Source: Thermoanaerobaculia bacterium (lineage in GTDB: Bacteria; Acidobacteriota; Thermoanaerobaculia; Gp7-AA8). Taken from it: a stretch of DNA of 64,000 nt. The stretch covers positions 134,940 through 198,939 of the forward strand of contig DASPHC010000055.1 in the NCBI GenBank assembly GCA_035629865.1. Reading direction: 5' to 3'. The number at the start of each line of letters is the position of its first letter. The stretch's first letter is position 1. The position numbers and the translations under genes were made by a program. A model generated the notes under the pieces. The model had not been told where the DNA came from and made no database searches. It saw only the letters and a list, made by a program, of their open reading frames with translations. Of the stretch, positions 3,547 to 63,835 are shown piece by piece.

Positions 3547-3557
3547 GCAGAGCACGC

Positions 3558-3643
3558 GATAGGACGAATAGGACTGATAGGACCTATAAGACGTATAGGA
3601 CTCCGATCGTCCTATCAGTCCCATAGGTCCTATCGGTCCTATG
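3558..3643. repeat. Intergenic palindromic repeat cluster (ATAGGAC x4-5 facing GTCCTAT x4)
   Basis: Seen directly. Left-half ATAGGAC copies and right-half GTCCTAT copies form a long imperfect hairpin. The same family is at 7914, 11645 and 43597. Confidence 0.7.
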
Positions 3644-7905: not shown

Positions 7906-7913
7906 CAGCGCTG

Positions 7914-8012
7914 GACGAATAGGACCTATGGGACGAATAGGACTGATAGGACCAATGGGACTCCATGGGTCCCATCGGTCCTATTCGTCCCATTGGTCCC
8001 ATTTGTCCGATA
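7914..8012. repeat. Intergenic palindromic repeat cluster (ATAGGAC/GTCCTAT family, with GGGACC/GGTCCC variant units)
   Basis: Same family as 3558..3643. gacgaataggacctatgggacgaataggactgataggacc faces ggtcccatcggtcctattcgtcccattggtccc. Confidence 0.7.
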
Positions 8013-12272: not shown

Positions 12273-12701
12273 ATGGACTGGGAGGGTGTGATGCGGGATC
12301 AGAGAATTGAAGTCAAGCGCTCGAATCCGTCCGGTGCCCGGGCCACCTCTGGCGCGCCGAGGGGCCGCCTCCTCAACACACTGCTGACCTACCTGCCCGG
12401 CGCGTGGATCGACCCGAAGAACAACGAGCTGATCACGCTCTACCGCCTCCGCTACCGCATGGCCATGGAGGAGGAGAAGTACGACACGGCGATGATCTTC
12501 CTCAACAAGATCCTCGAGCTCGACCCGATGAACCTCGAGGCGAAGCTCTGCAAAGGCGAGATCTACCACCGCTGCCTCGCCGACTACACCCGCGCCATCG
12601 AGCAGTACAACAAAGTGATCCGCCTCTCCGCCGGTGCCAACGAGGTGATCCACACCCGCGCCCGCGCCGCGATGAGCGAGATCATGGAACTGCTCTCGTA
12701 A
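12273..12701 (+). CDS. Hypothetical TPR-like protein
   Basis: TPR-like helices (AMIFLNKILELDPMNLEAKLCKGEIYHR..AIEQYNKVIRL). The start is uncertain and may be upstream at 12210. Confidence 0.45.
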   Translation: MDWEGVMRDQRIEVKRSNPSGARATSGAPRGRLLNTLLTYLPGAWIDPKNNELITLYRLRYRMAMEEEKYDTAMIFLNKILELDPMNLEAKLCKGEIYHRCLADYTRAIEQYNKVIRLSAGANEVIHTRARAAMSEIMELLS

Positions 12702-12725
12702 GGCAGCAGCTCTCTCAAGCCACCA

Positions 12726-13005
12726 AAATCAATGGATGCGTCATCGAAATCGACGGCCGCGCTGTCGAATTGATGGCTGCGTCATCGAAATTGGTAGCCA
12801 TGTCATCGAAATCGATGGTGATGCAATCGAAATCGATGGCGATGCAATCAAAATCGATGGCCATGCAATCAAAATCGATGACCATGCAATCGAAATCGAT
12901 GGCGATGTCATCAAAATCGATGGTGATGTCATCGAAATCGATGACGATGTCATCGAAATCGATGGTGTTGGCATAGAAAACGATGGCGGCGCATGAGAAA
13001 TCGAC
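12726..13005. repeat. Tandem direct repeat array, 21-bp unit x about 13 (consensus ATGCAATCGAAATCGATGGYG)
   Basis: Seen directly. Contiguous head-to-tail 21-mers with point variants, open in all six frames. Located in a convergent intergenic gap. Confidence 0.9.
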
Positions 13006-13053
13006 CGCAGCGCCGGCAAAACGCTGCACTTCGCCACGAAGCCGTTGGCGCGC

Positions 13054-14061
13054 TCAGCGATCGCGTTCCATCACGAAGTCGAGCGCCATCTCCAGTGTTT
13101 CTTTTGCCGGCGACGCCGGGAACGGGTCGAGGGCGCGGCGGGCGCGGTTGGAGTAGTCGCGGGCGATCTCGCGGGTCTGGTCGAGCGCTTCGTAGCGGTG
13201 GACGATGTGCAGGATCTCGGCCGGGTCGACGCCGTCGAAGGTCTTGTTCGAGGCGACGCGCGCGATCAGCTCCCGCTCCCGCGCCGTCAGGTGCGGCATG
13301 GCCAGGATCAGCGGCAGGGTGACTTTTCCTTCCTTCAGGTCGGAGAGGGCCGGCTTGCCGAGGACTTCGGTGCTGGAGGTGAAGTCGAGCAGGTCGTCGA
13401 TCAGCTGGAAGGCGACACCGAGGTTGTAGCCGTACTCTTTGAGCGACACCGCCGAGGCCTCGGGGAGGTCAACCAGGTACGCCGGGATGCGGCAGGTGGC
13501 GCCGAACAGGGCGGCGGTCTTCCGGCCAACGATGTCGAAATAGTCCTCGACCGAGATGTCGCTGCGGCCGTTCTGCTCCGTCCCGAGGATCTCTCCCTCG
13601 ATCATCTTGATGGTCGCGTCGGAGAGGAGGCGCAGGACCTCGAGATTCCCCTCGCCGAGGGCCATGTGCATCGAGTGCATGAAGATGTAGTCGCCGACCA
13701 GGACGGTCAGGTTGTTGCCCCAGCCGTAGTTCACCGAGGTGCGGCCGCGACGGACGTCGGCCTCGTCGATGATGTCGTCGTGCACGAGCGTCGCGGTGTG
13801 GATGAACTCCACGACCGCGCCGTAGGTGACGTCGCGGATGCCGTCGTAGCGGAGCATCTTCGAGACGAGGAGCAGCAGGGCAGGGCGGAGACGCTTCCCG
13901 CCGCCGCCGAGGATGTGCTCACCGACGTCGGAGATGGTGGCGATCTTGGAGCGGAAGTTGTTGCGCAGCTCTTCTTCCACAAGCTCCAGTTTTGGGGCGA
14001 TCAGCTCGAGGACACGCTCCGCGTATGCTGTCTGCCCGTTGAGAGTGCGAGGAGCGGTCAC
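13054..14061 (-). CDS. ispB: Polyprenyl diphosphate synthase (octaprenyl/heptaprenyl-type)
   Basis: First and second Asp-rich motifs LVHDDIIDEADVRRG and FQLIDDLLDF. Confidence 0.85.
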   Translation of the reverse strand: MTAPRTLNGQTAYAERVLELIAPKLELVEEELRNNFRSKIATISDVGEHILGGGGKRLRPALLLLVSKMLRYDGIRDVTYGAVVEFIHTATLVHDDIIDEADVRRGRTSVNYGWGNNLTVLVGDYIFMHSMHMALGEGNLEVLRLLSDATIKMIEGEILGTEQNGRSDISVEDYFDIVGRKTAALFGATCRIPAYLVDLPEASAVSLKEYGYNLGVAFQLIDDLLDFTSSTEVLGKPALSDLKEGKVTLPLILAMPHLTARERELIARVASNKTFDGVDPAEILHIVHRYEALDQTREIARDYSNRARRALDPFPASPAKETLEMALDFVMERDR

Positions 14062-27894: not shown

Positions 27895-28725
27895 CTATTG
27901 CTCCGCTTCCAGCCGGCGCAGCAGCTCCCGCACCGCCTCGATCACTTCGCTCTTCTCCACGTTCGGCTTCTTGAACGCCAGGTTGAGGGTGAACGGGAGC
28001 GCTTTGTCTTTGAGAGCGAAGACGTAGTTTTTGGGGCGGCCGGCTTTCGATTCCGGTTTGGTGGAGGTCTGCTTGCGCAGGTCGTCGCGGGAAAGCTCGC
28101 CGGCGGCGTAGGCGCGGACGAACTGCTCCATCGCCTCTTCGGAGCCGGCGCGGGCGACCTGGACGAGGACGCTCTTGTTCGCGATTCCGGCTTCCCGGCA
28201 CATCGCCCGGATCCGGTCCGGGATGTCGTTGATGAGCAGCGTCTCGGTGACTGTCGTCCGGGACTTGCCGATGACCTGGGAGATCTTCTCGTGGGTGTAG
28301 CCGAACTTCTGCTGCAGGATGTACAGCCCTTCCGCCTCTTCGAACGGCGTCAGGTCTTTCCTCTGGATGTTCTCGATGAGGGCGATCTCGAGCTGCTCGC
28401 GGTCGTCGACGTCGAGCTCGATGGCCGGGATCTCATCGAGGCCGGCCATGGTGGCGGCGCGGTAGCGGCGCTCGCCGGAGATGATCTGGTAGCGGTTCGG
28501 CCCGATCTGGCGGACCAGGATCGGCTCCAGCACGCCCTTGTCGCGGACGCTGGAGGCCAGCTCTTCGATATTGCCGAGCTGGGTGCGCGGCTGATTGGCG
28601 TTTGGCTCGATGAACTGGAGCGGCAGCATCGAGCCGATGTGCCGGCCGGAGCGGCGGGTCAGCTCGTCGACATAGTGCGAGTCGGCGCGCATTACGGAGC
28701 GTTCGGGAAGGCCACGCTTAGCCAT
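27895..28725 (-). CDS. parB: Chromosome partitioning protein ParB
   Basis: ParB box GERRYRAA and HTH region. Confidence 0.9.
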   Translation of the reverse strand: MAKRGLPERSVMRADSHYVDELTRRSGRHIGSMLPLQFIEPNANQPRTQLGNIEELASSVRDKGVLEPILVRQIGPNRYQIISGERRYRAATMAGLDEIPAIELDVDDREQLEIALIENIQRKDLTPFEEAEGLYILQQKFGYTHEKISQVIGKSRTTVTETLLINDIPDRIRAMCREAGIANKSVLVQVARAGSEEAMEQFVRAYAAGELSRDDLRKQTSTKPESKAGRPKNYVFALKDKALPFTLNLAFKKPNVEKSEVIEAVRELLRRLEAEQ

Positions 28726-28754
28726 GGGACGAGGTCCTCAGAACGAGAGATGAG

Positions 28755-28838
28755 AGATGAGAGATGAGCGATGAACGGAGAGCCGCTGAGCGTTCATCGC
28801 TCATCTCTCCTCGCTCATCTCTCGTACCGCGCAGCATG
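28755..28838. repeat. Palindromic repeat (GAGAGATGAGCGATGA family)
   Basis: gagagatgagagatgagagatgagcgatgaacg faces cgttcatcgctcatctctcctcgctcatctctc. Family copies at 56224 and 63787. Confidence 0.7.
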
Positions 28839-28841
28839 GTC

Positions 28842-29597
28842 CTATACACGGGACAGAAGCTCCTCGGACAGACTGTAGTACTCCATCGCCCCGCTCGATT
28901 TCGGGGCGAACGTGAAGATCGATTCTTTGTAGGCCGGGCTTTCCTCGAGGCGGATCGACTTGGTGATCACGGTATTGAAGACCCGGTCGCCGAAGACGTT
29001 GCCGATGGCCTCGTGGATGTCCTTCGACAGCGTGGTCCGCTTGTCGTGCATGGTGATGACGACGCCGAGGAGCTGCAGATTCGGGTTCGGGCGAGCCTTG
29101 ATCTTCTCGATCGTCTCGAGGAGGTCGTCCGTCCCTTCCAGCGCAAAGTACGACGACTGGATCGGCACCAGGACGTGCGTCGAGGCCACCAGCGCGTTCA
29201 CCGTGATCATGCCGAGGGTCGGCGGCGTGTCGATGAAGACGTAGTCGTACTCGTTGGCGGTCTCTTTCATCCGGTCCTTGAGGCGGAACGGACCGTCCAT
29301 GTCTCCGATGAGCTTCGACTCGAGCTTGGCCAGGGCGATCTTGGATGGCGCGACGAAGAGGTTCGGCACCGGCGTCGGCACGATGACCTCGGCCAGCTCC
29401 ATCTCCTCGCTCACCATGACGTCGTACATCGACCGCGTGATGGCGCGTGCGTCGACGTAGCTCATCGTCGAGTTTGCCTGCGGATCGAGGTCGATCAGCA
29501 GCGTTTTGAGGCCCTTGTTTGCGACCGCGGCGGAGAGGTTGATGGCGGTGGTGGTCTTTCCGACACCGCCTTTCTGGTTGGCGACAGTGATGATCAT
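28842..29597 (-). CDS. parA: Chromosome partitioning ATPase ParA/Soj
   Basis: Deviant Walker A KGGVGKTT and full ParA layout. Confidence 0.95.
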   Translation of the reverse strand: MIITVANQKGGVGKTTTAINLSAAVANKGLKTLLIDLDPQANSTMSYVDARAITRSMYDVMVSEEMELAEVIVPTPVPNLFVAPSKIALAKLESKLIGDMDGPFRLKDRMKETANEYDYVFIDTPPTLGMITVNALVASTHVLVPIQSSYFALEGTDDLLETIEKIKARPNPNLQLLGVVITMHDKRTTLSKDIHEAIGNVFGDRVFNTVITKSIRLEESPAYKESIFTFAPKSSGAMEYYSLSEELLSRV

Positions 29598-31440: not shown

Positions 31441-31503
31441 TGTTAAGCTCGCAGCTCTCAGCTCGCAGCTCTCAGGGGGTTTTTGCTGAGAGCTGAGAAC
31501 TGC
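31441..31503. repeat. AGCTCGCAGCTCT repeat with a hairpin
   Basis: agctcgcagctctcagctcgcagctctcag ... ctgagagctg. A related copy flanks the pckA terminator at 22303..22392. Confidence 0.5.
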
Positions 31504-37720: not shown

Positions 37721-37800
37721 ACAAAGGCAGAAGGCAGAAAGCAAAAGGCAGAAGGTTCACATCCTTCTGCCCTCTGCCTTCTGACTTCTGCCTTTGACTT
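37721..37800. terminator. Long perfect hairpin (GGCAGAAGG repeats) downstream of hpf; putative terminator
   Basis: aaaggcagaaggcagaaagcaaaaggcagaagg-ttcacat-ccttctgccctctgccttctgacttctgcctttg. A related motif is at 40637..40668. Confidence 0.5.
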
Positions 37801-37809
37801 TTGTGCGGC

Positions 37810-39870: not shown

Positions 39871-40623
39871 TCAGTTTAGATTGAATGTCTCGCCCAGGTA
39901 AATTCGCCGGACCTCAGCGTCGGCCGATAGGCTCTCGGGCTCTCCCTGCCGGAAGATCTCACCTTCTTTGATGATGTAGGCCCGATCGGTGATCTTCAAT
40001 GTTTCCCGTACGTTGTGGTCCGTAATGAGGATCCCGATCCCCCGGACCCGCAGTTGCGAAACGATGCGTTGTATTTCGAAGACTGCGATTGGATCGATTC
40101 CTGCAAACGGTTCGTCTAGCAAGATGAATGCCGGGTTGATCGCCAGACTTCTCGCGATCTCCACCCTCCGTCTTTCCCCACCCGACAACGCATACGCCCT
40201 GCTCCGCGCGATGTGTGTGATCCCGAACTCTTCCAGCAACGCGCGCGTGCGCCGTTCGCGCTCGGCCCGCGGCAGACGCATGGTCTCGAAGACCGATAAA
40301 AGGTTCTCTTCCACGGTGAGTTTCCGGAACACCGACGCTTCCTGCGGGAGATAACTGATGCCCCGCTGCGCGCGCAGGTACATCGGCAGCTCGGTGATGT
40401 CGTCGTCGCCCAGAGCCACCGTTCCGCCGTCCGGCTTCACCAGCCCGACGATCATGTAGAACGTGGTCGTCTTCCCCGCGCCATTCGGCCCGAGCAACCC
40501 CACGATCTCCCCCTGCCGGATCTCCACGGAAACATCCCGTACCACCCTTCGCCCCTTGTAAACCTTCACCAGATGGGTCGCGGTGAGATGCAGCGGCTCC
40601 TGTTTGGCAACGCCATCAGCCAT
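39871..40623 (-). CDS. lptB: LPS export ABC transporter ATP-binding protein
   Basis: Walker [10 protein letters not shown], signature [13 protein letters not shown], synteny with rpoN. Confidence 0.9.
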
Positions 40624-40695
40624 GCGCGGCGGAGAGTATCAGGTGAGGGCAGAAGGACGAAGGCAGAAGGCAGAAGTGGGAAAAGAGTTACAGCG

Positions 40696-40917
40696 TCACG
40701 CTCCCACGACGACGTATTCGGCGAACGCGCTCGACTGCGGAATCGGCAGACCATCTTCGCGCAGCCCTTCGACGTGCAATTGAATCGCTTCGTACATGTT
40801 GCGTTCCGTCTCTTCGCGCGTCGCGCCGGTGGCGACACAGCCCGGCAAATCGGGCGAGTACGCCGAGAAGTTCTGGCCTGCGTCTTCGATCACGATCAGA
40901 AACCGATGCACGTTCAT
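40696..40917 (-). CDS. hicB: HicB-family antitoxin (UPF0150)
   Basis: FSAYSPDLPGCVATGATREE is a HicB N-terminal-domain motif. 4-nt overlap with hicA. Confidence 0.75.
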   Translation of the reverse strand: MNVHRFLIVIEDAGQNFSAYSPDLPGCVATGATREETERNMYEAIQLHVEGLREDGLPIPQSSAFAEYVVVGA

Positions 40918-41131: not shown

Positions 41132-43102
41132 CTACGGCCCCTCGTGTTTGTACGTCCCCTTGGTCTTGCCGTCCGGGCTGAGCACCTGTACGCGGTCTCG
41201 GGCGACGTCGAAGACGATCTGCTGGCCGGAGACGTCGCCGTTCGGGTCGCTGATTTTGGCCGGAGTGCCGAAGACGTAGATCATTTTTTTGTCGACGTGG
41301 TAGATGGCTTTGTCGCCGGCGCCTTTGCGGCCGGTGGAGGACTCGCTCATCGCCACCGCGGTCTCCGCTTCCATGCGCTGCACTTTGCGGTTCTCGTCGA
41401 GGAAGAGCGTCGCTTTCTCCGACTTGAGGTTGCGGGTCTCGTCGACGATGTTGACCTTGCCGAGGAACTCCACGCGGCGCTCGCCGCGGCGGGCGATGAG
41501 CTGGTCGCTCGTGGTCTGCATCGGGGCCTTGCGCGCCTCGGCGCCGCTGGTGTTGTAGAGCAGCGTGCGGACGTTGCCGCGGGCGGTGATGGAGTCGCCG
41601 TTCCCCTGCACCTGCATCTCGTGGGCGAGGATGGTGTTGCTGTCCTGCCACGCTTTCACGTTGCCGGTGAAGACGGCGATCTTCTGCTGCTGGCGCATGA
41701 TCAATTCGTCGGCGTTGACGAAGACCGGCTTGGCTGATGGGAAGAGGTTCGTGGCATCGGCGGTCGGTCCGCCTCCCTTTCCCTTCCCGACGAGCTGCGC
41801 GATCACCGAACCGCTGGCGCGGGCCACCTGTGCCCGCGGCGAAAACTCGATCTGTTTCGCCTTCAGGATCTGGCCGTCGGCAACGACCGTCGCCTGCCAG
41901 CCCGGATCGGTGGTCAGGATGATCTTGTCGCCGGCGATGTCGTAATTCGCGCGGAACGCCGAGGCGGTGTTCTTCGGGTCGGCGTAGCGAAAGGCGCCTT
42001 CGAGATGCGCCGAGCGCGCGCGGCGCGTGGTCTGGTCGTAGTAGACGGTCACGTGCTCGGCGTTGATCTGCCGCGTCTCCGGTCCCATTTCCTTCATCAC
42101 CACCTGCCAGTCGGCCTTGATCTCCTGGATCAGCCGGTTGGCGATGGCCACGCGGAAGTTGCGCGCGGTGATCTCGCGGCGCGGCGGTCCGTCGAGCACC
42201 GCCCTGGCGATGTTCTCCGCGGAGATGGCGTTGAAGGCGTTGATCTGGCCGTCGGGACCGAGCTCGGTGTTGAAGGAGTCGGAGGTGATGGTCTTGCGGC
42301 CGCCGAGGTCCTCGCCGGGAAGCTGGTTCGCCCCGACGACGATCACGCAGTTGCGCTGCCCTTCCATCCCGATGAGCTGGCGGCGGTCCTGGGTGAAGCG
42401 GCCGGTCATGAAGTCGGCGCGGAGGCTGTCGGCGCCGCGGTCCATCTGCACCTGGTCGCGGAACTCGACGATGTTCTCGCGGCGGCGAAAAATGCTCTCC
42501 ACTCCGCGGAGGGTCATCGGCACTTCGGCCGGCTGCGAGGGGACCATGGTGGCGTCGACCTGCTTGTGGAGGCGCAGGGTCTCTCCCTCGACGTCGAGGT
42601 CGAGCGCGCCGGCTTTGCCGTTCCAGCGGTCGACCTTGAACTCGACCGGGATGTCGTTGGTCAGCCGGGCGCCGTCGTAGCGGATCTCGGCGGTCTTGAT
42701 CTCGATGTTGTCGCTGGAGGTGACGCGCACGCCCCCCTTGGCCTCGGCTTCTTTGGTCTTGCTGTTGAACTGGGCTTCGGGGCAGGAGATGACGTACGTG
42801 AGGCCGTTGGCGCGGTAGAGGGTGAGGGTGACCCCTTCGAGCGTGGTCCAGCCCGACTGAAACGAGACGATCCGGGTGGCCACGATCTCCGAAACGACGC
42901 GTCCGCCGATCGTCTGCACGTCGCGAAAGGCCTTTCCTTCAACCAGCGGGGCATCCTGGGGACGCTGGGTGGAGGTGACGGCCTCGGCGGGCTTGCGCGC
43001 GCCCCGGCCGCGGGAGGCGGTCCAGTTGGCGATGATGACGCCGAGAAATGCGAGGAAGACGATCGGCAGCGCGATGCGGAGTGCCTTGACGGTGCGCTGC
43101 AT
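41132..43102 (-). CDS. LptC/LptA-like LPS transport protein (N-terminal membrane anchor plus several OstA-like beta-jellyroll domains)
   Basis: Transmembrane anchor ALRIALPIVFLAFLGVIIANW. Repeated OstA_N-like segments. Position immediately upstream of lptB. Confidence 0.65.
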   Translation of the reverse strand: MQRTVKALRIALPIVFLAFLGVIIANWTASRGRGARKPAEAVTSTQRPQDAPLVEGKAFRDVQTIGGRVVSEIVATRIVSFQSGWTTLEGVTLTLYRANGLTYVISCPEAQFNSKTKEAEAKGGVRVTSSDNIEIKTAEIRYDGARLTNDIPVEFKVDRWNGKAGALDLDVEGETLRLHKQVDATMVPSQPAEVPMTLRGVESIFRRRENIVEFRDQVQMDRGADSLRADFMTGRFTQDRRQLIGMEGQRNCVIVVGANQLPGEDLGGRKTITSDSFNTELGPDGQINAFNAISAENIARAVLDGPPRREITARNFRVAIANRLIQEIKADWQVVMKEMGPETRQINAEHVTVYYDQTTRRARSAHLEGAFRYADPKNTASAFRANYDIAGDKIILTTDPGWQATVVADGQILKAKQIEFSPRAQVARASGSVIAQLVGKGKGGGPTADATNLFPSAKPVFVNADELIMRQQQKIAVFTGNVKAWQDSNTILAHEMQVQGNGDSITARGNVRTLLYNTSGAEARKAPMQTTSDQLIARRGERRVEFLGKVNIVDETRNLKSEKATLFLDENRKVQRMEAETAVAMSESSTGRKGAGDKAIYHVDKKMIYVFGTPAKISDPNGDVSGQQIVFDVARDRVQVLSPDGKTKGTYKHEGP

Positions 43103-50291: not shown

Positions 50292-51221
50292 ATGAGCAGG
50301 AACGAGGAAGTCGCACGAGAGTTCTGGAACCGTGAGGTCCACACCCCCACGCACTCGAACTGGATGGCCCACCCGCTGGTGCGCGCCTACATCAACCGCT
50401 CCATCGCCGGAGACTCCGGCCAGTGGCCGATGGACTGGCTGGAGACGTGGCTGGCCGGGCGGCGGTTCAAGCGCGGCCTGAGCGTCGGCTGCGGCGCCGG
50501 CTCGCTGGAGCGTGACCTGATTCGCCGCAACCTGTGCGAGCAGATGGACGCCTTCGACGGCTCACCGGAATCGATCCGGGTGGCCATCGACGAGGCGGCG
50601 AAGCTCGGCTACGGCGACCGCATCCACTACCGCACCGGCGATTTCAACGAGCCGCAGCTCCCGTCCAATACGTACGACATCGTCTTCGTCCACCAGGCCA
50701 TGCACCACGTGGCCAAGCTCGAAAAACTCTACCGGGCCATCATGAAGACGCTGGCGCCGGACGGGCTGCTCTACCTCGACGAGTACATCGGCCCCTCGCG
50801 CCACGAATGGACGGAGCAGAACTTCGCCCCGATCCAGGGCGTCTTCCAGTCCATCCCGCGCGAGAAGCGGAACCTCGACTCCCTCCTCCTCCCGATCCAG
50901 GTCCACGACCCCTCGGAGGCGATCCGCTCCAGCGAGATCCTGCGCGAGCTGGCAGTCGGCTACGACACCCTCGTCCGCCGCGACTACGGCGGCAACGTCC
51001 TCTCCATCATCTACGGCCAGGTCGAAGACACCGACGCCATGACCGAGCACCTGATCGTCGAGGAGGAAAAGCTGCTGCGCGAAGGGATGGAGCCCTTCCT
51101 CTCGATCATCATCGCCAAACCAAAGCGAGGGATCGCCGGAGCGGTGGCGCGAGGACGGTATTTCCTGGAACCGAAGCTCAAGCGGATCGGGCGCGAGGTG
51201 CGAAAAGTCGTGTCGCGTTGA
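50292..51221 (+). CDS. Class I SAM-dependent methyltransferase
   Basis: Motif I LSVGCGAGSLE and an acidic post-I residue. Confidence 0.7.
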   Translation: MSRNEEVAREFWNREVHTPTHSNWMAHPLVRAYINRSIAGDSGQWPMDWLETWLAGRRFKRGLSVGCGAGSLERDLIRRNLCEQMDAFDGSPESIRVAIDEAAKLGYGDRIHYRTGDFNEPQLPSNTYDIVFVHQAMHHVAKLEKLYRAIMKTLAPDGLLYLDEYIGPSRHEWTEQNFAPIQGVFQSIPREKRNLDSLLLPIQVHDPSEAIRSSEILRELAVGYDTLVRRDYGGNVLSIIYGQVEDTDAMTEHLIVEEEKLLREGMEPFLSIIIAKPKRGIAGAVARGRYFLEPKLKRIGREVRKVVSR

Positions 51222-51388
51222 GCCGCATTTCTCGCCACGAGAGGCGAAGAGCCGCCACTCGTGCCATGAAGTTGATCGTCTGGAACCAACTTGTGAGCGA
51301 GGGGAGGCAGCGACGCAGTGAGGGTAAGCCTATGCATTGTTGCGGCATGTCCACCCATCGGCCATGCCGGAATTTACGGCGGGTAGCG

Positions 51389-51680
51389 CGGACTCATCGA
51401 TGAGTAGCGCGGACTCATCGGTCGGTCGGGATCGACTCATGGATCGGTCGGGATCGACTCATGGATCGGTCGGGATCTACCCATGGATCGGTCGGGATCG
51501 ACCCATGAATCGGTCGGGATCGATCCATGGATCGGTCGGGATCGACCCATGGATCGGTCGGGATCGACCCATGGATCGGTCGGGATCGACTCATGGATCG
51601 GTCGGGATCGACTCATCGCCGGTCGGGATCGACTCATCGGCCGGTCGCGATCGACTCATCGGCCGGTCGCGATCGACTCA
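51389..51680. repeat. Tandem direct repeat array, 22-bp unit x about 13 (consensus CGGTCGGGATCGACYCATGGAT)
   Basis: Seen directly. Head-to-tail 22-mers with decay at both ends and two GATC per unit. Located in a convergent intergenic gap. Confidence 0.9.
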
Positions 51681-51681
51681 C

Positions 51682-52377
51682 CTAAGCGCCGATCCCCAGC
51701 TCCGTCATCACCTTCTTCATGTCGTTCCAGACGTCCTTCTTCGCCGAAGGGGTCCGGAGCAGGTACGCCGGGTGGTACGTCGGCATCAGTTTGATGCCGT
51801 TGTAGTCGAGCCACTGGCCGCGGACGGCGGAGATGCCGTAGCTCTTCTCCGTCAGCGACTGCAGGCCGAAGCGGCCGAGGGTGACGATGACTTTGGGCTG
51901 GATCAGCGCGACCTGGCGTTGGATGAAGGGGCGGCAGCTTTCCAGCTCGTCAGGCTCGGGATTGCGGTTCTCCGGCGGGCGGCATTTGATGACGTTGGCG
52001 ATGTAGACGTCGTCGCGGGTGAGCTTCATGGCCTTGATGATGTCGGTCAGCAGTTGTCCGGCGCGGCCGACGAACGGCTCCCCCTTCTTGTCCTCGTCAA
52101 AGCCCGGAGCCTCGCCGATGAACATCAGGTCGGCGTTCGGGTTGCCGACGCCGAAGACGACATTGGTGCGCGTCCCCGCGAGGCGGCACGACTGGCAGTT
52201 GTGGGCTTCGAGTCGGAGGGCGTCGAAGGCGCCGGGCTGGTCTCCCGCTGCTTCCAGCGCTGCGTCCCCCATTGCTTCCACGGCTGCTTCAGTTTTCGTC
52301 CGGACCGGGGTGAGGTCGAGATGGGTATATCCAAGCTCGCGGAGGTAGGCGAGCTCCTGCAGGACGTCGGGATTCAT
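51682..52377 (-). CDS. Uracil-DNA glycosylase, family 4
   Basis: 4Fe-4S cysteines CQSCRL...C and motifs GEAPG and HPAYLLR. Confidence 0.85.
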
Positions 52378-52794: not shown

Positions 52795-52879
52795 CGGTTG
52801 CTGGTTGTCGGTTGCTGGTTGTCTGGGCCGTCTCGCGATAGATGAACGGTGACGCGAGAGCTGCCCCTCGGGTCTCGGC

Positions 52880-54348: not shown

Positions 54349-54359
54349 GGCTGCGCCGC

Positions 54360-54452
54360 CGTTATCGGTTGTCCGTTGTCAGTTGTCCGAACCGACGACG
54401 CTCGGAGGGCCGTGCATCGACAGACAACCGACAACTGACAACTGTTTTCAAC
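54360..54452. repeat. Inverted-repeat element (GTTATCGGTTGTCCGTTGTCAGTTGTCCG ... CAGACAACCGACAACTGACAAC)
   Basis: Third copy of the family seen at 14590 and 35780. Confidence 0.7.
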
Positions 54453-56209: not shown

Positions 56210-56223
56210 AAATTCGAGAGATG

Positions 56224-56300
56224 AGCGATGAGAGATGAGCGATGAACCTCGGGGAAGGCTCTGCTCATCTCTCATCGCTCATCGTTCATCTCGCTCCTGT
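56224..56300. repeat. Palindromic repeat (GAGAGATGAGCGATGA family)
   Basis: gagagatgagcgatgagagatgagcgatgaac faces gctcatctctcatcgctcatcgttcatctc. Confidence 0.7.
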
Positions 56301-63786: not shown

Positions 63787-63835
63787 CGAGAGATGAGAGA
63801 TGAGCGATGAGAGATGAACGATGAGAGATGAACGG
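63787..63835. repeat. Palindromic repeat (GAGAGATGAGCGATGA family), direct-repeat-rich copy
   Basis: gagagatgagagatgagcgatgagagatgaacgatgagagatgaacg immediately upstream of the msbA start. Confidence 0.65.

Follow-up and report, generated by a model that had tools for sequence, protein, structure and literature searches.

The tandem array of 22-bp units at positions 51383-51681 of the analysed window (the whole stretch of 64,000 nucleotides, or 64 kb) is very probably a young, lineage-specific minisatellite (VNTR), which is confined to a single locus, does not code for protein and has been shaped by slippage or unequal exchange. Several patterns fit such a process, namely indels of whole units between nearly identical strains, a complete lack of substitutions in the shared units and the adjacent spacer although the wider flanks diverge by 0.37%, and a homogeneous interior of the array between degenerate edges.

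TRF reported a core at 51412-51680 with 12.3 copies (period 22, 93% matches, 0% indels, score 391), which bears out the 22-bp tandem array of the initial annotation, and the consensus GACTCATGGATCGGTCGGGATC is the unit given there in another rotation. The periodicity begins about 6 bp before position 51389. When we searched with CGACYCATGGATCGGTCGGGAT and allowed up to 3 mismatches, it turned out that all 9 matches were within the array, compared with 0 in 100 dinucleotide-preserving shuffles, and no further copy of the unit was found elsewhere in the 64-kb window at 3 mismatches.

Read in register, the array starts with two degenerate units at its 5' end (A-type; 51383-51432; GTAGCGCGGACTCATCG...), which include a perfect 14-bp palindrome, ACTCATCGATGAGT, at 51392-51405. 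They are followed by eight homogeneous core units of 22 bp (B-type; 51433-51608) with the sequence CGAC(C/T)CATGGATCGGTCGGGAT, each of which has 0-1 mismatch to CGACCCATGGATCGGTCGGGAT. The 3' variant units (C-type) are located at 51609-51629 (21 nt; CGACTCATCGCCGGTCGGGAT), 51630-51651 and 51652-51673 (both CGACTCATCGGCCGGTCGCGAT), and a partial unit at 51674-51681 abuts the stop codon of the next gene. The units at both edges carry 3-11 mismatches, as opposed to 0-1 in the core, so the array has the homogenised interior and the degenerate edge units of a VNTR or minisatellite. A homogeneous centre with degenerate edges is the classical pattern of arrays under unequal exchange. All units are in direct orientation and contiguous, without spacers; a CRISPR array was rejected on the contiguity of the units and the lack of unique spacers. 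Besides, the unit is quasi-palindromic about CATG (self-reverse-complement identity 0.74, p=0.014), and its period of 22 bp corresponds to about 2.1 helical turns.

The two genes around the array were confirmed by Pfam, and the location between the stop codons of a methyltransferase and a uracil-DNA glycosylase (UDG), as originally described, stands. On the + strand, a class-I SAM-dependent methyltransferase of 309 aa (50292..51221; stop TGA at 51219-51221) matches Methyltransf_11/25/31/12/23, which are generic class-I families of the small-molecule type only and not DNA methylase families. On the - strand, a family-4-type UDG of 231 aa (51682..52377; stop TAG at 51682-51684) matches PF03167 with E=7e-41, and its homologues are annotated as uracil-DNA glycosylase family 4 from Thermoanaerobaculia. 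The gene neighbourhood consists of methyltransferase, UDG, PriA and CoaBC (Pfam), and RpoZ and Gmk also belong to this housekeeping context. The convergent gap between the methyltransferase and the UDG is 460 bp long, and its array-free part is a unique, non-repetitive spacer (51222..51382); the segment 51222-51411 has no second copy in the window or in the fetched loci.

The array is non-coding, since neither the 22-bp unit nor the 110-bp difference between two alleles (see below) is divisible by 3, and this difference breaks every reading frame. The ORFs that cross the array are either antisense to the UDG or restricted to the array itself. Scanning the gap gave no promoter-like site and no stem followed by a U-tract, the single match of the terminator scan lying within the methyltransferase gene, and an intrinsic (Rho-independent) terminator was rejected for the gap, which contains no G+C-rich stem-loop with a U-tract. 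A G+C-rich hairpin without a U-tract is located at 51236-51263, directly after the methyltransferase stop. No Rfam 15 model matched the window at gathering score, and the permissive scan returned only miRNA-hairpin models, whose scores of 18-29 bits fall far below the thresholds of 45-100 and reflect a general capacity to form hairpins. In folding, each strand of the gap surpasses shuffled sequences (z -3.16 and -3.46), because several units can pair across the quasi-palindrome; the DNA hairpin of two units (a dimer of the 22-mer) does not rise above the shuffled level (z -0.4 and -0.65).

These folding results bear on another reading of the array, in which it would be a bidirectional barrier to transcription or a stabiliser of RNA 3' ends for both convergent genes, similar to REP/BIME elements. 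Transcripts entering from either side would fold into long imperfect hairpins of several units and would stop RNA polymerase or block 3' exonucleases. The position of the array exactly between two convergent stop codons, one of which it abuts, the lack of a canonical stem-plus-U-tract terminator in the gap, the folding of both strands beyond the shuffled level and the dyad symmetry of the unit are all in favour of it. However, in the closest relative the same convergent pair manages with a gap of 68 bp and no array, the two-unit hairpin folds at the level of shuffled sequence, the methyltransferase stop is already followed by a G+C-rich hairpin of its own, the copy number is not constant, and the intergenic hairpins elsewhere in the lineage are of a different kind, built from heptamers. 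We regard such a barrier as unlikely. REP/BIME elements (REPIN) of Enterobacteria and Pseudomonas are imperfect palindromes which favour gene 3' ends and convergent gaps and can form RNA hairpins. They are dispersed in hundreds of copies, in clusters of alternating orientation and linked to RAYT, whereas the units here are direct and belong to a single locus, and no RAYT (Y1 transposase) was found among the about 55 genes of the window.

The minisatellite reading draws on a second complete allele. A JGI soil-metagenome contig of 12.6 kb (Ga0190275_10002732, sample 3300018432; hereafter L001) was found by its identical UDG protein, and its flanks are 99.4-99.7% identical to the window, a divergence of about 0.37%. 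It contains 17.3 copies in a gap of 570 bp, compared with 12.3 copies in 460 bp in the window, so the copy number does vary between strains, contrary to the lack of variation that the initial annotation had named as a refutation. The 110 extra bases in L001 are made up of four core units and one unit of the terminal (3' variant) type: the core block has 12 units in L001 and 8 in the window, and there are three full C-type units in place of two. The core units 1 to 7 have the same sequence and the same order in both alleles without any substitution, including the variants CTACCC, CATGAAT and CGATCC, and two of the four additional core units of L001 are private variants absent from the window allele. 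Compared at the sequence level, the two alleles point to at least two separate whole-unit indel events, at no fewer than two places in the array. Indels far outpace substitutions here, because whole units were gained or lost while the shared units and the 190-bp spacer show zero substitutions. This unique spacer (51222-51411) is 100% identical in the window, in L001 and in a third dataset, the Logan assembly contig of SRR6958552 (L012), which also has the identical methyltransferase. The 5' degenerate units are identical in L001 and L012, and the L012 contig stops exactly where the homogeneous units start, the usual break of a short-read contig at a tandem repeat.

Could the array, or its difference in copy number, be an artefact of assembly, such as a repeat that was collapsed or expanded, or contigs joined as a chimera? 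Every source is a metagenome assembly, the arrays of both complete alleles (about 270-380 bp) exceed typical short reads, and the short-read contig L012 does break at the array. However, three independent datasets share the 5' junction of the array, and the two full alleles share the order of seven units, three distinctive variants among them, as well as the 3' junction with the UDG stop. Moreover, the extra units of L001 include two variants that the window allele does not have, so no simple over-expansion of identical units accounts for them. We consider an artefact very unlikely, and the misassembly that the initial annotation had named as a possible refutation was not upheld: the ordered variant units recur in L001, and L012 breaks at the array. 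Judged from these assembled sequences, the existence of the array is secure, because three datasets share its 5' junction and the full alleles share the seven-unit order and the 3' junction, while the exact copy numbers are provisional. They could depend on the assembly: 88 bp of the allele difference are internal and lie between junctions that share 47 identical bases, and a de Bruijn assembler could shortcut this difference through the shared 47 bases.

To judge from its distribution, the array is a recent, species-level expansion at a single locus. The closest relative recovered (L005) has a UDG with 83% identity and the same order of UDG, methyltransferase and PriA, and its UDG-methyltransferase gap of 68 bp is free of repeats. 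In five further relatives (L006, L009, L010, L014 and L015; UDG about 78-81% identical), the UDG is followed directly by PriA, and neither the methyltransferase nor the array is present. The array is taken to be recent because L005, with the same gene order, and these five relatives are without it. Among the fetched loci, no array with a period of 15 or more and 3.5 or more copies was found except for the copies in L001. We also searched for dispersed copies with a 20-mer from the unit in 596 Gb of species-representative genomes plus JGI metagenome contigs, the collection to which L001 belongs, and only the L001 contig was recovered, together with two single chance matches (one per collection) in unrelated sequence. 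As a source of the unit, we considered the hairpin CCGGTC-TAC-GACCGG in the L005 gap, taken as the ancestral one; it aligned best with the 3' variant unit, matching at about 21 of 26 positions when 3 gaps were allowed (p=0.13), and this origin was rejected and is kept as a lead only.

The comparison of these loci also concerns the methyltransferase gene, which is itself an insertion between UDG and PriA specific to one lineage: of the loci compared, only those of the window lineage and of L005 carry it. In the relatives lacking it, UDG and PriA are co-directional with gaps of 0 to about 110 bp. By longest-ORF calls, the methyltransferase start in the window overlaps the predicted start region of PriA by 81 bp (50292-50372).

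Taken together with the structure of the array, these comparisons suggest how it may have formed. A quasi-palindromic seed of about 22 bp in the 3' spacer between the convergent genes would have been duplicated, after which the array would have grown and shrunk by replication slippage, by unequal recombination between misaligned units, or by both. Misaligned exchange would homogenise the centre of the array and leave degenerate units at both edges, and the dyad symmetry of the unit may favour misalignment assisted by hairpins. Changes in length would cost little in a convergent gap without a promoter or start codon, and the array would be tolerated there; it persists, on this account, because the gap holds neither. 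The sequences themselves establish the tandem structure, the difference in copy number, the absence from relatives, the single locus and the lack of a reading frame and of any known RNA or protein-binding signature; from their patterns we infer the mechanism of slippage or unequal exchange and the near-neutrality of the array. Dyad symmetry could have an incidental effect on transcripts that enter the array, and no data require a function.

The initial annotation also drew attention to GATC, with two sites per unit and about 26 sites in all, as a possible methylation or restriction-site cluster. Two sites per unit are correct for most core units, but a single site is left in one core unit and in the 3' variant units; counted from 51433, 4 of the 11 full units lack the first GATC, and the interval contains 20 sites rather than about 26. 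In the core, the sites alternate at spacings of 10 and 12 bp. Across the window, GATC occurs at Markov expectation (O/E 0.96; 0.95 without the array), and no Dam/D12 methylase or restriction enzyme was found by Pfam among the about 55 genes of the window, which leaves the methylation or restriction cluster unsupported. The density of GATC arises because one unit that happens to carry two GATCs was amplified, and the apparent cluster is a by-product of this amplification. Likewise, the high content of GATC, TCGA and CCATGG and the period of roughly two helical turns are properties of the amplified unit and not separately selected. Among 4-bp palindromes in the window, CTAG is nearly absent (4 sites against about 53 expected, O/E 0.08), while the others are at 0.8-1.9 of expectation.

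A related reading is that the DNA serves as an array of protein-binding sites, on which a dimeric factor would occupy a quasi-palindrome of 14-20 bp every two helical turns, or a SeqA-like or otherwise methylation-dependent reader would recognise GATC. The period of about 2.1 helical turns with a palindromic core in each unit would suit it, as would the alternation of GATC at 10 and 12 bp, which places the sites on one face of the helix, and chromosomal-type parB and parA genes are present in the window at 27895-29597. However, ParAB lie at a distance of 22 kb, the adjoining genes include no Rep, Par, Dam or restriction gene, the unit is unlike parS, GATC is unbiased in the window, the array is absent from all relatives examined, the unit of the second array in the window is unrelated, and annotated plasmids and phages match only as chance hits of about 60 nt. 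Such a binding array is, on these sequence comparisons, highly improbable. Iterons and centromere arrays, such as the 22-bp iterons of R6K and sopC of F, consist of direct repeats of about 20 bp with two-turn phasing, each a site for a dimeric protein. They are found beside the rep or par genes of mobile replicons, with which they are conserved, in contrast to the chromosomal housekeeping context of the 22-bp array, and an iteron or centromere array was rejected on the lack of an adjacent rep or par gene, the relatives without the array and the lack of plasmid or phage similarity. As for parS, a search of all 64 kb that allowed up to 2 mismatches gave no canonical site (TGTTNCACGTGAAACA), so parS is either located beyond the window or has diverged in this lineage. 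The GC-skew of the window follows gene orientation, and we draw no inference from it on an origin or terminus.

The array could also act at the level of RNA, if its transcript in the methyltransferase sense titrated a protein as CsrB and RsmZ do, with GGA motifs exposed partly in the 4-nt loops of GGUCG-GGAU-CGACC hairpins. There are 19 GGA on the + strand of the array and 1 on the - strand, a GGAU loop on a 5-bp stem occurs in every unit, and the GGA density resembles that of CsrB, which has about 22 GGA in about 370 nt. However, this strand asymmetry follows automatically from amplifying one unit, and even the sister lineage (L005) does not share the array. Besides, neither a promoter-like site, nor a CsrA gene in the window, nor an Rfam match accompanies it. 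We regard a titrating RNA as extremely unlikely.

A second tandem array is found at 12740-13013 with about 13 units of 21 bp (78-84% match), between a TPR protein (stop at 12701) and a polyprenyl synthetase (stop at 13054), and decay has gone further in it than in the 22-bp array. The unit includes CATCG-AAAT-CGATG and is dyad-symmetric as well (self-reverse-complement identity 0.77, p=0.008), and the dimer folds as DNA with z about -2.9. A - strand ORF over this array (12715..13029) reads as IDFDD(I/M)x heptads, 21 being a multiple of 3; it is probably spurious because its stretch looks A+T-rich for the genome. Exact-protein look-ups with the TPR protein and the polyprenyl synthetase gave no matching contigs, and the CoaD-bearing contig L013 ends short of the position of the 21-bp array. 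In a relative with 86% identity, contigs from three sequencing runs (L016, L017 and L018) break off 28 bp beyond the stop of the polyprenyl synthetase. The ends of L016 (4509-4536) and L017 (3413-3440) finish in a run of more than 20 G, which is probably an artefact of two-colour chemistry and not a real homopolymer.

In the initial annotation, the two arrays were linked by shared cores (ATCGA and CATGG/GATGG) and by their placement, from which a common mechanism was proposed. The cores do not hold as a link: the best cyclic alignment of the 21- and 22-bp consensus units in both orientations did not exceed what shuffled units (p=0.20) and random 21/22-mers drawn from the genome (p=0.37) give, and these values are no evidence for common descent of the units. 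At the level of sequence, this argues against a shared sequence-specific binding factor, and the sole property common to them is dyad symmetry. Gene calls and Pfam agree that both arrays sit in convergent gaps. A rough gene map based on GC3 counts about 9 convergent junctions among about 53 in the window, which puts two of two arrays in such gaps at p about 0.03 by junction count and at a weaker value by base pairs. Convergent gaps are the least constrained intergenic class, and the placement needs no special mechanism, because gaps without promoters or start sites tolerate length-variable DNA best. The proposed common mechanism is retained in part, as slippage or unequal exchange, which the five-unit difference between the alleles supports, and dropped as a shared binding factor; the argument from placement is weak. 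The apparent kinship of the two arrays is a by-product of unit amplification plus chance.

A further reading would make the array a non-neutral, fast-evolving functional element whose copy number tunes its effect, either as a buffer of multiple hairpins against head-on transcription or as an RNA or DNA platform that titrates a factor, with the unrelated but likewise dyad-symmetric 21-bp array as a second instance of the class in this lineage. A structural role may be suggested by the symmetry of both units (p=0.014 and p=0.008) and by the folding of both gap strands beyond the shuffled level, and we hold such an element to be decidedly unlikely.

As a young non-coding minisatellite, the array resembles loci that are well described in other bacteria. 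Intergenic tandem repeats with variable copy number have long been known there as VNTR/MLVA loci, MIRUs and BrickBuilt (PMC3899988, PMC12817950, PMC4596501), and phase-variable copy number of tandem repeats is reported for M. tuberculosis (PMC12817950). Like the MIRU-VNTR loci of Mycobacterium tuberculosis and the MLVA loci of Xanthomonas and others, the array consists of non-coding, head-to-tail units in the range of 10-100 bp, its copy number differs between near-identical strains, slippage or unequal exchange accounts for it, and a homogeneous centre is flanked by degenerate edges (PMC12817950, PMC3899988, PMC4045669). Unlike these loci, it comes from an uncultured lineage of Thermoanaerobaculia, its unit is private to one locus and only two alleles are known so far. 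Among the papers searched, none combined Thermoanaerobaculia, a class that has been little studied, with tandem repeats.

BrickBuilt of Porphyromonas gingivalis is a minisatellite within a MITE, with spacer-less, imperfect units of 23 nt in 1-22.8 copies, always intergenic and species-specific; it occupies 19 loci per genome and has promoter activity and a conserved leader and tail with terminal inverted repeats (PMC4596501). The 22-bp array shares with it the spacer-less, imperfect units of 20-odd bases, the intergenic location and the restriction to one species (PMC4596501), but it occupies a single locus with a unique 190-bp flank and has no promoter-like site. A BrickBuilt-type MITE was rejected, as no dispersed copies were found in the 64-kb window or in the genome and metagenome scans beyond L001 and chance hits. 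The structure of a MITE was not found either: there is no tail (the array abuts the UDG stop), the leader is unique, and terminal inverted repeats are not convincing, the sole candidate (19 nt, 79%) having one arm inside the UDG coding sequence.

Another kind of repeat is found in the window, that is, long intergenic hairpins at many loci, in which each arm consists of 4-5 tandem copies of a unit of 7 nt or 9 nt. Both arms were seen at 3557-3642, 7913-8008, 28743-28825, 37721-37804 and 54359-54444, single heptamer runs at 31446-31475, 40648-40676 and 52795-52823, and further sites lie at 56216-56290 and 63788-63834. For example, GAGAGAT x4 faces its complement, AAGGCAG faces CCTTCTG, and ATAGGACGT faces GTCCTATCG. 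The three best hairpins that we checked have arms of 34-35 nt with 85-94% complementarity and loops of 7-13 nt; at 54361-54435, only arms of 16 nt, 43 nt apart, were found. The heptamer unit differs by locus. The hairpins often separate genes that point the same way, and one separates parB from parA. The same architecture with other heptamers occurs in relatives (L006 at 277-354 and 2150-2227, L010 at 580-656). These runs recall the cyanobacterial STRR and the TAACTGA repeats of Beggiatoaceae (PMC4679880), but unlike those they are organised as inverted pairs. The heptamer hairpins look more lineage-typical than the 22-bp array and are possibly more interesting. In addition, a HicB-like antitoxin ORF of 73 aa (40696-40917) is located between the LPS-export genes lptB (39871..40623) and an LptC/LptA-like one (41132..43102), and no HicA partner was called beside it in the rough gene map.

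In conclusion, the array is best read as real but ordinary non-coding DNA, not as a regulatory or methylation device. If it did act in the control of convergent transcription or in titrating a factor, it would show such elements arising from nothing within a species; the present evidence gives no such indication. Short-read assemblies of this lineage break or are mis-sized at the array, which calls for caution in their use. With this array, the minisatellites, a well-known class in bacteria, gain a representative from the Acidobacteriota. Its practical value is modest: it provides a ready-made strain-typing marker for uncultured soil Thermoanaerobaculia, for which PCR over 51222-51700 should give length alleles.
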